DNA from: Chlamydiales bacterium
Lineage (GTDB): Bacteria > Chlamydiota > Chlamydiia > Chlamydiales > SM23-39
Direction: 5' to 3'
Assembly: GCA_030681135.1 (NCBI GenBank)
Contig: JAUXXF010000016.1
Coordinates: 129,402-193,401 of the forward strand
Length of the DNA stretch: 64,000 bases
Of the stretch, positions 25,026 to 28,280 are shown piece after piece. How positions within the stretch are numbered: the first letter of the stretch is position 1; the number at the start of each line of letters is the position of its first letter. The translations under genes and the position numbers were made by a program. A model generated the notes under the pieces. That model did no database searches and was not told where the DNA came from. It saw only the letters and a list, made by a program, of their open reading frames with translations.

Positions 25026-25189
25026 TATACCGAAACAACCTGAAGAATCGGTTTTTGGCTGTGTCGGCTTTACCTCAGAATTTTTGTCTTCGCTCGTGCC
25101 TTGCCTCCGGCAATGGTCACTCACTCCAGACAAAAAATTCTGAGGAGCCTTCTTGCCAAAATCTCGATTCTTCAGGTTGTTTCGGTATA
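25026..25189. mobile_element. MITE-like element (family A), 164 bp with 25-bp terminal inverted repeats
   Basis: TATACCGAAACAACCTGAAGAATCG at 25026-25050 is the perfect inverse of CGATTCTTCAGGTTGTTTCGGTATA at 25165-25189. The element has no coding capacity for a transposase. Confidence 0.8.
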
Positions 25190-25221
25190 AAAAAAAAGCA
25201 CCTGGCAAAACTGCCAGGTGC
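25189..25221 (-). terminator. Rho-independent terminator of the 864-aa gene
   Basis: On the minus strand, the stem gcacctggca / tgccaggtgc with a 4-nt loop is followed by a T9 run. Confidence 0.75.
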
Positions 25222-25266
25222 GCTATGTGACGAGTAGATTAGATCTTCTTCGTTGTTTTCAAAGAC

Positions 25267-27861
25267 TTAGAAGTAAAAAGAGAGGTGTCCAACTCCCTTT
25301 GTAGGTCCTTGATTTTGCGAAGACTGAGAGGCTGCGGCTTTTTGACTTTTTGTTGCCGGAACTTCTTCTGCTTCTACTGTTTTTCCACCCCAGCTAAAAA
25401 AGCTTTTTATGGACGATGCGGAGCTTGAGACGGCCCCTGTTATAGCAGCTCCTGCTTTATTTGCGGCTGTGCTTGCTGCGGCATACGCTGTACCTGCTGC
25501 TTCCTTTGTGGTTGAGAAAGTGCTTGCTGCGATATCAGCTGTAGCTTCGTACATACCCATGGGGATATCACGTACATCAGAGATAGTTCCTTTAAGGGCT
25601 GTTAGGTTGTTTTTTGAGTAGTCTACAACAAATGATGTAGATGCTTTAAAGGCTTTAACCCCTGCAGTTTTTGCATCTGATAAAGTGATGCCTTTATATT
25701 TGCAACCCACAATTCCTACGGCCGAGACTAGTACTGCCGTTGCCATCATCGGGTTGTCAAGGATAGGATCGATGATCGCAGAAGTTAGTTTTGTAATAGA
25801 AACTTCTGGTAGTGGGCTATGGGCTTGCAGATAGCCTAGCCCCTTTAGGGTTTCTTCAAAAGCAGAACCTGCTCGCTCATTGATTTGAGCTGTAATGCGG
25901 GTAGCTCCTGTAAGTAAGGTCCCGATAGTGTCCTCTGATGGCATAACACCTTCAACCAGAGTGTAGAAGCCATCTGTAATATGCGGGGTTCTTGCTAGAT
26001 CACCAAAAGCTATTGTATTGCTGCTACTGATGACACTTTCTTCTAAGAGACAAATAGGATGCTCTAATGAGGAAACATTTTTAATCACCTCAGCAGTTGT
26101 GTTAGTGCCTACACTTACGCTTGTAAACATAGTATTTGTTAGGCGAGCATTTCTAATCAGCTTAGCAGTTACGTCAAAGCCTTTGCCTAAGCCTGCAAGA
26201 ATAGCATCTTTTGGGAAGGCAGTTTTAACCGCTTTTCCTAAATCGATAATGGTTGAACCATCAACAAGTCCGTTGGAGTAAGCCAAGGCTCCTGCTGTTC
26301 CAAGTAAAGTCGGTATAGCTGCTATTTCTGCTCCACTCCGAATAGCTTCAGGAAGGCTTCGAGAGACATCTTGATTTGAAGGAAGCAATAGACTTGTATT
26401 TCTTATATAAGTCATCGCGTCTTGCTTACCATAGCTTAAACGGGAGAAATTTCTGCTGATGCGATCTTTGAGGGTTGTTTTCTCGTTGAGATCAATGATT
26501 CCGAGTGCTCCAGACATATCTGATGAGTTATGGAGTTCATCGGATAGGGGGGAAGTGATTTCTATAGTAGCTTTCTTTTCTATCGCGTAGGCAATGACTT
26601 GCTGTTGAAAAGAGACTAATCGATCGAACAGTGTTTTTCTTTCTTCAGCATCTTCTACATCTTGAGGCAATTGATGATAGAGTTCACAAACCTTGTTAGA
26701 GAGGTCGACATAGTATTCAATATCGCCGCTTAGCAAATTTTTTGTAACAGAGTTTTTTGGGCCTTTTAGTTTTGAGTCTTGGAAAAACTCTTCTTCTTCT
26801 CCCAAAGCATCAAGGTAAGTAGATGCTTCCAGGATAATTCGCTCTTCCAGACTATCTGGGTACATGAGATCCTGGATGGCTTCTACGGAGTTCTCATCTG
26901 CAGCGCGTGCAATGATTTCCTCATGAAAATGTTTTAATTTCTCGAGCAGAGATGTATGAGCTGCATCTACTTTTTCATGACTATCGAGCCGCTTGTAGAG
27001 TTCAACGGCTTCGTTGAATTGTTCGATACATTCGTGGAGAGATAGAGAGGAATTCAGGTTGTTTTCTTCCAAGGCATTGAGCAATTCTTCTTTTGTTTGA
27101 AGCTTGTCGATGAGTTTTTTCGCAAATTTTTGAGCATCTTCTATGGATAAGGTGCTTTTTTCATTTCTATAGAGCAAAACAAAATCTAGTATTTCTTGCT
27201 CTGCATTGTTAAATTCCTCTTGATATTCTCTCAGGTTATTTACAAGAGTAGAGATTTTTTCGATTGTTGGAGATTCTTGGTTATCAAGGATTTGAGACTT
27301 GTTTCCTTGGATGCCAGGCTCTCGGAATTCAGGAATTTCTCTGCTAGAAGTTTGCGAAATGATCACAAGCGGTTTATTCAACAGTTTCGCTTTGCCGACT
27401 ACCATCTGTTTGAATGCATCAATAGTAGCTTTTTTGGTGTTACTTAGCGTGACTTCGTTTTTTTCATCTAAGTCAGCAAGAGTTGTCTTATTTCGGTAGA
27501 TACTCAACAAGTCATTGAGTAGATTCTGCGTATCTTTCCATGGATACAAATCTAATCTGTTAGGATGTTTTATGAAATATTTTGCGTCGTTGATTCGCGC
27601 TTGTTCCTCTTTGGAAAAGAGAGAGGAGCTGCTCACTGGTGTGCTATGAGGAGAAACGTTTTTCGTTTCTGTATAGAAAGAGAAAGACGAATTTACACTG
27701 GATGTTTGTGTGTTTGAGTCTAGTGCCTGGTCATTCATTTCTGGTGTAGAAATCTGATTAGCGGAATGAAAGTCATGATCATTTGAGAGAAGAGTTTCTC
27801 TCACTTCGGTGCGTGTCAAACCTGTTGTATCATTTGATGATTTGGAGATCGATAAACCCAT
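25267..27861 (-). CDS. Large protein of unknown function: S/T-rich N-terminus, coiled-coil middle, G/A/S/T-rich hydrophobic C-terminal half. Paralog of 28423-31683
   Basis: 864-aa ORF. Blocks shared with the neighbour include LFSKEEQ..I..A.YF.KHP.RL, LLSIYRNK, PLVI..QT...EIPEFR, SPLSDELHNS and a C-terminal IKSFFSWGGK..VEA. Confidence 0.8.
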   Translation of the reverse strand: MGLSISKSSNDTTGLTRTEVRETLLSNDHDFHSANQISTPEMNDQALDSNTQTSSVNSSFSFYTETKNVSPHSTPVSSSSLFSKEEQARINDAKYFIKHPNRLDLYPWKDTQNLLNDLLSIYRNKTTLADLDEKNEVTLSNTKKATIDAFKQMVVGKAKLLNKPLVIISQTSSREIPEFREPGIQGNKSQILDNQESPTIEKISTLVNNLREYQEEFNNAEQEILDFVLLYRNEKSTLSIEDAQKFAKKLIDKLQTKEELLNALEENNLNSSLSLHECIEQFNEAVELYKRLDSHEKVDAAHTSLLEKLKHFHEEIIARAADENSVEAIQDLMYPDSLEERIILEASTYLDALGEEEEFFQDSKLKGPKNSVTKNLLSGDIEYYVDLSNKVCELYHQLPQDVEDAEERKTLFDRLVSFQQQVIAYAIEKKATIEITSPLSDELHNSSDMSGALGIIDLNEKTTLKDRISRNFSRLSYGKQDAMTYIRNTSLLLPSNQDVSRSLPEAIRSGAEIAAIPTLLGTAGALAYSNGLVDGSTIIDLGKAVKTAFPKDAILAGLGKGFDVTAKLIRNARLTNTMFTSVSVGTNTTAEVIKNVSSLEHPICLLEESVISSSNTIAFGDLARTPHITDGFYTLVEGVMPSEDTIGTLLTGATRITAQINERAGSAFEETLKGLGYLQAHSPLPEVSITKLTSAIIDPILDNPMMATAVLVSAVGIVGCKYKGITLSDAKTAGVKAFKASTSFVVDYSKNNLTALKGTISDVRDIPMGMYEATADIAASTFSTTKEAAGTAYAAASTAANKAGAAITGAVSSSASSIKSFFSWGGKTVEAEEVPATKSQKAAASQSSQNQGPTKGVGHLSFYF

Positions 27862-27916
27862 ATGTTTTTCCTTGTTTAAACTTAAGTTTTTCTGTGAGTA
27901 GATTCTATTTATTATT

Positions 27917-27940
27917 CGATTATTTTGCTAATCAAATAAA
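27917..27940 (-). promoter_or_regulatory. Conserved upstream box shared by the two large paralogs
   Basis: cgattattttgctaatcaaataaa lies about 60-80 nt upstream of the ATG and recurs at 31738-31761 upstream of the paralog. The leader and RBS region (aaggaaaaacatATG) is also conserved. Confidence 0.3.
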
Positions 27941-28024
27941 TTATATAGTATCATTTATTGTTAAAATAATTTTTTTAATTTGTTTTTTTTGTGTGCTATT
28001 TTAAAAAATTATTTGTTTTCGGGT

Positions 28025-28188
28025 TATGCCGAAATAACTTGAAGAATCGGGATTTTGGCAAGGAGGCTCCTCAGAGTTTTTTGTCTGGAGCGAGTGACCA
28101 TTGCCGGAGGCAAGACACGAGCGAAGACAAAAATTCTGAGGTAAAGCCGACACAGCCAAAAACCGATTCTTCAGGTTGTTTCGGTATA
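28025..28188. mobile_element. MITE-like element (family A), second full copy, inverted relative to 25026-25189
   Basis: The interior matches the reverse complement of copy 1 with only a handful of differences by eye. The right TIR (28164-28188) is perfect and the left TIR (tatgccgaaataacttgaagaatcg) is slightly degenerate. Confidence 0.8.
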
Positions 28189-28257
28189 ATGCAGAGAAGA
28201 CTCAATACTAATGATCTCCACGCAAAAGATCCTGAAAAGAATCGTGGAGAGCCTTTT

Positions 28258-28280
28258 GATCTTCAGGTTGTTTCGGTATA
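28258..28280. repeat. Solo terminal inverted repeat of family A
   Basis: gatcttcaggttgtttcggtata lies 70 nt beyond the end of copy 2. Confidence 0.6.

Follow-up and report, generated by a model that had tools for sequence, protein, structure and literature searches.

Rickettsia palindromic elements (RPE), reportedly described by Ogata et al. in 2000, are among the closest counterparts of a repeat family that we describe here from environmental Chlamydiota. The family is represented by two near-identical copies, A and B, one truncated copy and two degenerate in-frame copies in a 64,000-nt stretch of DNA from a Chlamydiales bacterium (GenBank assembly GCA_030681135.1, contig JAUXXF010000016.1, positions 129,402 to 193,401; hereafter the window). 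Our results indicate that all five are very probably separate insertions of a single 160-bp, non-autonomous, TA-duplicating transposable element of the miniature inverted-repeat type (MITE) with the form of a near-perfect palindrome. Published mentions of RPE include PMC1458961 and PMC1166351. RPE and the chlamydial family are alike in being palindromes of ~100–170 bp within an obligate intracellular lineage, in lying both between genes and in frame within them, housekeeping genes included, in adding a peptide segment to the product and in having no known transposase. They differ in host, Chlamydiota rather than Alphaproteobacteria, and in the sharp 25-bp terminal inverted repeats, TA duplication and recent insertion polymorphism of the chlamydial elements. 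The likeness is one of behaviour and not of compared sequence; by this analogy the family behaves like RPE without being filed as RPE.

RUP of Streptococcus pneumoniae and Nezha of cyanobacteria are IS630-derived bacterial MITEs. They share with the chlamydial family a short non-coding body, terminal inverted repeats, a TA target with its duplication, and many copies per genome in mostly intergenic positions. For both, an IS630-family parent with matching ends has been identified, whereas none was found for the chlamydial family, which in turn is conserved in numerous genomes of one phylum, forms a hairpin over its entire length, with covariation, and adds exactly 54 codons net. The Correia elements of Neisseria (CREE/NEMIS), known for promoters, integration host factor (IHF) sites and RNase III processing, come close in size (about 100–155 bp), in their ~26-bp terminal inverted repeats starting TATA, in TA duplication, in high copy number, in the lack of a known autonomous partner and in the capacity to affect neighbouring genes. 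Their terminal repeat sequence and host are different and they are mainly intergenic; a promoter scan found no consensus promoter inside copy A or B. MITECca01 of a Cardinium endosymbiont derives from the IS982-family element ISCca4, and MITEs are under-reported in such genomes (PMC9769881). It too is a MITE of a repeat-rich intracellular symbiont, but its host belongs to Bacteroidota, its parent is identified and it bears no relation to the chlamydial family in sequence or mechanism. Judged by analogy, the family is closest to RPE in behaviour and to the TA-duplicating MITEs RUP, Nezha and Correia in mechanics, and none of these fits as a class. We found no defined MITE family for environmental chlamydiae, and no description of this one in the searchable literature on chlamydiae. 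The Waddlia genome paper refers to 'numerous repeated sequences', and environmental chlamydiae are repeat-rich (PMC2878342).

In copy A the 160-bp element (25028-25187) is enclosed by TA at 25026-27 and 25188-89. Its terminal inverted repeats occupy 25026-25050 and 25165-25189, with arms that are perfect over 27 nt. The arms of copy B extend over 32 nt at 84%, with three substitutions in the left end (TATGCCGAAATAACTTG...), and both copies read TATACC...GGTATA. The outer 25–26 bp of the element, TACCGAAACAACCTGAAGAATCGG, form these terminal inverted repeats. Together the two copies make a larger inverted repeat with arms at 25025-25190 and 28024-28189 (166 nt, 95% complementary), and the first-pass annotation had recognised this inverted, near-identical pair correctly. 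The copies are 95% identical and have terminal inverted repeats of 25–27 bp. With up to three mismatches allowed, the window has five occurrences of the 25-nt terminal repeat, where 100 shuffles give an expectation of 0.00. A third end beside copy B had been taken for a solo terminal repeat at 28258-28280. The end is real, and 28260-28280 is an exact match to nucleotides 1–21 of the terminal repeat, but it is not solo: it is the tip of a truncated older copy that keeps the last ~70 nt of the element, with indels, followed by the terminal repeat and TA. A reading of this end as a mini-MITE was dropped, as a 5'-truncated copy aligns better to copy A. The degenerate copies at 23955-~24125, with a left terminal repeat carrying three mismatches, and at 225-358 are additional to those noted earlier and bring the window total to four copies and one truncated copy.

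Copy A occupies a TA just past the T-run of the terminator of an 864-aa gene and lies 56 bp upstream of the ATG of a 237-aa open reading frame (ORF). Copy B is located 164 bp upstream of the start codon (ATG) of the 864-aa gene, outside the upstream block at 27900-27974 that is conserved between this gene and its tandem paralog of 1086 aa. The TA used by copy A is also a possible -35 position of the promoter of the 237-aa ORF (TAGACC in the empty allele; 24970-25026), and insertion of copy A could possibly affect expression of this ORF. Logan contigs of the source run stop within the repeat. Contigs support each of the four junctions at which unique DNA meets an element end, and the interiors and relative orientation of A and B depend on the assembler that produced the window.

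Mobility of the element is apparent from four independent empty-site comparisons, in each of which one TA stands where the filled site has TA-[160 bp]-TA. Copy A is missing from sequencing runs X3, X4 and X5 and from contig L116, and copy B from X4 and L116. L116, which derives from a peat metagenome and was reached via the protein P0002, is collinear with the window. At site A it reads GCTTTTTTTT-TA-GACCTTCCC where the window has ...TTTTTTTT-TA-[TACCGAAAC...GTTTCGGTA]-TA-AACCTTCCC, and at site B it reads CATTAT-TA-ACCC where the window has GCAT-TA-[element]-TA-ACCC. Contig 8 of X4 (one and five differences on the two sides, ~98-99% identical) passes from 25024 through CT to 25190, a contig of X3 passes from 25024 through CTA to 25189, and X5 skips 162 nt at site A. 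Over site B an X4 contig is 162 nt shorter than the window. L116 also carries a truncated copy, complementary to that at ~28212-28282 and sharing its outer boundary (CGGATC); the ~28212-28282 stretch is covered in X4 as well. Within the window, tgggaaggtcTAaaaaaaa, a flank of the terminator of the 1086-aa paralog, is the paralogous image of the empty site of copy A. At locus L003 the TA of a unit from another repeat family (GTCCTT-TA-GAATCC) is interrupted by a copy of the element; the unit at window 13074-13141 is uninterrupted. Over 110 flanks, T stands 101 times and A 109 times at the two target positions, and no other position exceeds 0.13 bit.

The single TA in each empty site means that the element consists of 160 bp plus a TA duplication, a net gain of 162 bp. 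Since the insertions are polymorphic between near-identical strains, the element has moved recently. The proposal in the first-pass annotation that the TA flanks are the target duplication of a MITE-type element is therefore supported by the empty-site comparisons, and the related strains to which it had pointed as a check (here those of runs X3, X4 and X5, together with contig L116) each have a single TA. The element is shorter than ~300 bp and encodes no transposase, its sole frames being read-through ones of 54 codons. It has terminal inverted repeats and a TA duplication and occurs in dispersed, polymorphic copies, and these features together characterise a MITE.

A scan of one genome per species returned at least 113 loci. 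By database label, most belong to metagenome-assembled genomes (MAGs) of Chlamydiae, Chlamydiales, Rhabdochlamydiaceae, Simkaniaceae or Waddlia, and others to 'Verrucomicrobia' or 'uncultured bacterium'. Further copies, whose existence had been left for a genome search to establish, were thus found, mostly in Chlamydiota MAGs, and the family is spread through environmental Chlamydiota. A search with nhmmer and an element profile gave 118 merged hits, 53 of them full-length. The 55 paired copies have modal lengths of 164, 165, 176 and 173 nt, and over 48 copies the outer 25–26 nt are at least 90% conserved while the interior is variable. In the source run (X1, a groundwater metagenome) the repeat has a depth of ~400 against 17 for flanking DNA, about 24-fold, which amounts to about 20 copies' worth at ≥85% identity, and many contigs in chlamydial MAG assemblies end inside the repeat. 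A BLAST search with joined flanks found no empty sites among the 113 listed loci, whose genomes are too diverged. With 19 specified bases, 596 Gb of sequence should yield about four matches by chance, and L018, L021 and one terminal-repeat match each in L090, L094, L104 and L112, which have no element-profile match, are likely of this kind. Mini versions of 81–84 nt occur at L076 (399-~480), L088 (3556-3639) and L103 (1947-2027). In these, about 30 nt of interior separate the two terminal repeats, so internal deletion derivatives also persist.

The position of copies A and B on either side of the 864-aa gene, 2.8 kb apart, inverted and 95% identical, had suggested a composite transposon in which the pair moves the gene or in which recombination between the copies made the tandem paralogs. 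The bracketed gene is indeed one of two tandem paralogs, the 1086-aa protein matching that of 864 aa at 41% identity over 48% of its length and the DNA being about 70–80% identical. The duplicated unit, terminator and upstream block included, is 70–89% identical, against 95% for the elements. It follows that the duplication long predates the insertions, which did not mediate it. The same gene order is found in L116, namely the paralog, an 824-aa ortholog (82%) and a 235-aa gene, with both MITE sites empty, and X4 (~99% identical) lacks copy A and the 162 bp at site B. As this order exists without A and B, the gene was in place first and was not carried by the elements. Neither a second locus for the 864-aa protein nor any other kind of contig bearing it was found. 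Among 5.8 billion proteins it has three matches, which are itself, the P0002 ortholog (82%) and its own paralog (41%), and neither it nor the 1086-aa paralog matches Pfam. The 864-aa gene is a lineage-restricted orphan outside any mobile unit; the idea that the elements mobilise it fails on its presence at the same locus without them in L116 and X4, and we regard a composite transposon as extremely improbable. The truncated older copy and copy B share one intergenic region, which has accordingly been hit at least twice and the whole region three times. That copies A and B bracket the gene in inverted orientation is coincidental: they are independent insertions into neighbouring intergenic regions, of which one had an older copy already, and they form no functional unit.

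The 3' part of the 1086-aa gene contains three tandem 66-nt repeats at 28580-28777 (the second and third 86% and 76% identical to the first), which encode recurring GTASGA.AIGSTAYNVGATVVS segments. As 106 nt of this stretch are missing from a contig of run X2, strains may differ in repeat number.

Either strand of copy A is predicted to fold into a single full-length hairpin, at -88 and -94 kcal/mol with a z score of about -15 (-14.8 for the fold at -88). In an alignment of 29 oriented copies, pairing holds for 94% of cells and both sides have changed in 20 of the 48 pairs, giving a covariation score of 0.269 that compares with 0.03–0.08 in slid controls and was reached by 0 of 500 shuffles. 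Most changes in the interior helix are transversions that leave Watson-Crick pairs intact (AU to UA, GC to CG), and one-sided wobble intermediates are absent. Paired changes without such intermediates mean that the palindrome is kept, with compensatory substitutions preserving the hairpin. It may be at work either as DNA, in transposition or replication, or as RNA.

So stable a hairpin with so many double substitutions raises the question of whether the copies encode structured RNAs or serve as regulatory hairpins (for example small RNAs, terminators or RNase III sites), in which case the hairpin would be the selected function and the spread secondary. The placement of copy A, immediately after a terminator and with the next start codon 56 bp downstream, would suit such a role. 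However, no Rfam family matches the element, the window yielding two tRNAs only, and the copies lie in both orientations, between genes and inside ORFs. TA duplications and presence/absence differences between near-identical strains also speak against it. The most conserved part of the element is its 25–26 bp ends rather than the stem interior, as expected for ends bound by a transposase, and the transversion-type pair changes without wobble intermediates fit a DNA palindrome at least as well. We consider an origin as RNA genes or regulatory hairpins very unlikely; the elements may have an RNA role after insertion.

The net insertion of 162 bp corresponds to 54 codons. In each orientation one frame is often free of stops. 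This phase follows the TA, reading TAC CGA AAC... as YRNNLKNR and finishing ...DSSGCFGI. With a net length of 54 codons and a frame without stops, an insertion into an NTA codon can be read through. Several genuine genes with long ORFs have copies in frame (Table 1). The copy in DnaX sits beyond Pfam domain III, which extends to residue 374, 530 residues being seen. This copy is collinear in strains of ~91% identity (runs X3 and X5) and is therefore old and fixed. In the LpxK protein P0067 (386 aa) a 54-aa segment follows a GTA codon; P0068 (327 aa, 73% identical) lacks it, as do some hundred further LpxK proteins from chlamydiae. When insert-bearing proteins are aligned with solved structures of LpxK and RlmD type, the alignment is interrupted precisely where the insert lies. 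In another LpxK, P0075 (alignment columns ~283-350), a PPPTALE(V/A)KD tandem-repeat insertion lies about 15 residues upstream of the position of the MITE in P0067, and the part of LpxK around the MITE site seems to tolerate insertions.

Sixty-three database 'hypothetical proteins' (P0004-P0066) of 51–95 aa are translations of the MITE. The N-terminal extension of the LpxK protein P0116 (…CIAQLSQVELLRRRL…) looks like a copy of the 173-nt subfamily that was called as coding. A peptide-profile search for long insert-bearing proteins yielded only short spurious ORFs among its 124 candidates.

Table 1. Element copies and paralogous genes in the window, and in-frame copies within and beyond it
Feature	Position in window, or locus	Strand	Remarks
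MITE copy A	25026..25189	+	95% match to copy B; empty sites in relatives
MITE copy B	28025..28188	-	inverted relative to A; empty in L116; 162 bp shorter in X4
Truncated older copy	~28212..28282 (start approximate)	+	orientation of A; from alignment to copy A
Degenerate copy	23955..~24125 (end approximate)	+	77% identical to A over 88 nt
Old degenerate copy	225..358	-	71% identical to B
864-aa gene, bracketed	25267..27861	-	terminator 25198-25221
1086-aa tandem paralog	28423..31683	-	terminator 28369-28393
In-frame copy, LpxK	L068		inside domain
In-frame copy, RlmD/RumA-like methyltransferase	L101		between TRAM and catalytic domains
In-frame copy, UDPGP-domain protein	L109
In-frame copy, Rce1-like protein	L102
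In-frame copy, RING-finger protein	L009
In-frame copy, LpxC	L087		C-terminus
In-frame copy, 309-aa ORF (23373-24302)	window 23955-~24125	- (ORF)	upstream of priA; peptide ...KKTPQIFLSEGESRSQSTNEEKHSETKPQQTKIDSSESFGI...
In-frame copy, DnaX (ORF 3-1592)	window 225-358	- (ORF)	C-terminal variable region; ORF runs off the window

DDE transposases of the IS630/Tc1-mariner type, and the MITEs that they move, are marked by the combination of terminal inverted repeats and an obligatory TA duplication. The chlamydial element inserts at a TA dinucleotide and duplicates it; its movement would accordingly be catalysed in trans by a DDE transposase of this type, and the recent insertion polymorphism implies that an active enzyme exists in the lineage. 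Several points weigh against a TA-duplicating MITE of this kind. Because the element begins with TA, a 162-bp insertion between T and A without duplication is formally equivalent and fits as well. Site B in X4 is two bases off the predicted empty site (cggTATAatg vs cggGTTAatg) and may also reflect loss of copy B by recombination between CCGAAA microhomologies; L116 supports the view that site B would have been truly empty ancestrally. The TA duplication is the whole basis of the assignment to IS630/Tc1, and no transposase bounded by TACCGAAACAACC ends was found in the 113 listed genome loci, ~8–12 kb around each. Several insertions persist inside real genes, the products of which may not be functional. 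Stop-free element orientations number 55 of 110 in phase 2 (19 and 2 in the other phases), the interior alone is open in 52 of 96 cases against 34 ± 4.7 in dinucleotide shuffles, and the net length is divisible by three in 31 of 55 copies, but these figures come from copies related by descent, so they describe a tendency and the shuffle statistics overstate independence.

Other searches for the enzyme were likewise negative. Seven metagenome loci, picked up with a pattern that leaves out typical MITE interiors, contained no transposase, the large ORFs of the window include no transposase, viral contigs had 0 hits and PLSDB plasmids gave no match. The genes of the window are those of a TLC-type ATP/ADP transporter, a Legionella_OMP-like protein, an RHS protein, DnaX, PriA and other housekeeping proteins. 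Together with the relatives of the repeat, these genes suggest that the window belongs to an environmental chlamydia. When the terminal repeats of the 113 listed loci were paired at every spacing, the pairs lay 80–250 bp apart, with the addition of one 3.9-kb pair (L090). This pair was rejected as an autonomous partner, as it encloses a hydrolase and small ORFs without a Pfam match, as were ORFs recurring across loci, whose clusters are housekeeping families only. The autonomous insertion sequence with matching ends that the first-pass annotation had proposed to look for was thus not found within ~8–12 kb of the matches, in the window or in viral contigs. That annotation would have given up its proposal if neither further copies nor a matching transposase existed, or if the empty sites bore no mark of mobility. 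The transposase is missing in the range searched, while further copies and mobility at empty sites were both found, and the interpretation as a MITE stands.

The absence of a partner with matching ends would also be expected if the repeats were palindromes of the REP/BIME type and owed their spread to a domesticated Y1 transposase present in single copy (RAYT), or to some other orphan mechanism, instead of to an IS630/Tc1 DDE enzyme. The conservation of the ends over the labelled chlamydial families fits a mobilising gene of this kind that is single-copy and vertically inherited. REPs are repeats of 20–40 nt with GTAG or CGTC heads and are not known to duplicate their target, whereas the chlamydial element has 160 bp, 25-bp terminal inverted repeats and a TA duplication. 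The transposase search spanned about 8 kb per match, which makes the absence weak as an argument. Spread by a RAYT or another orphan mechanism is unlikely in our judgement, and a TA-duplicating MITE mobilised in trans remains the preferred interpretation.

The window contains a second, unrelated repeat family at 1665-1738, 13074-13241, 21304-21386, 35046-35218 and 56922-57091. Its units of ~60–70 nt each have two small hairpins (GGGGCTCTGCCCC, AAAGGACTGCGTCCTTT) and often form intergenic inverted pairs around a terminator-like hairpin. Its depth in related strains is 10–14 times that of flanking DNA, and the TA-MITE of L003 lies inside one such unit. Duplicated blocks at 6825-7086 and 9226-9488, and at 7953-8324 and 10455-10827, are 74–96% identical. 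They span the 3' end and downstream region of a 1859-aa RHS-repeat ORF (1802-7378), where GC content falls to 0.35, and may be alternative C-terminal toxin and immunity cassettes. ORFs 40854-41723 and 41740-42555, which are low in GC and share segments (41283-41615 and 42109-42435, 73–88% identical), look like tandem paralogs, and the former matches glycosyltransferase family 25. A 91-nt direct repeat (62366-62456 and 62962-63052, 93% identical, 596 nt apart) has one copy inside ORF 62809-63999 on the minus strand.

The element is genuine: it has been active recently, extends across the phylum and is tolerated within coding sequence. For annotation, this means that at least 63 public 'hypothetical proteins' are translations of the MITE and that gene callers extend real genes into the repeat, as in the LpxK protein P0116. 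For strain typing, presence or absence of copies separates strains that are ~99% identical. A more far-reaching possibility, which we put forward tentatively and hold to be doubtful as a whole, is that the family is a second, independent RPE-like case: a phylum-conserved palindrome whose length and stop-poor frame would be shaped for read-through, which would be a source of new peptide segments, those of DnaX and LpxK included, and which would be moved by a conserved, possibly single-copy transposase not flanked by element ends. Read-through in both orientations and persistence in conserved enzymes parallel the situation in Rickettsia and make the family a testable case, in intracellular bacteria, of selfish DNA adding segments to proteins.

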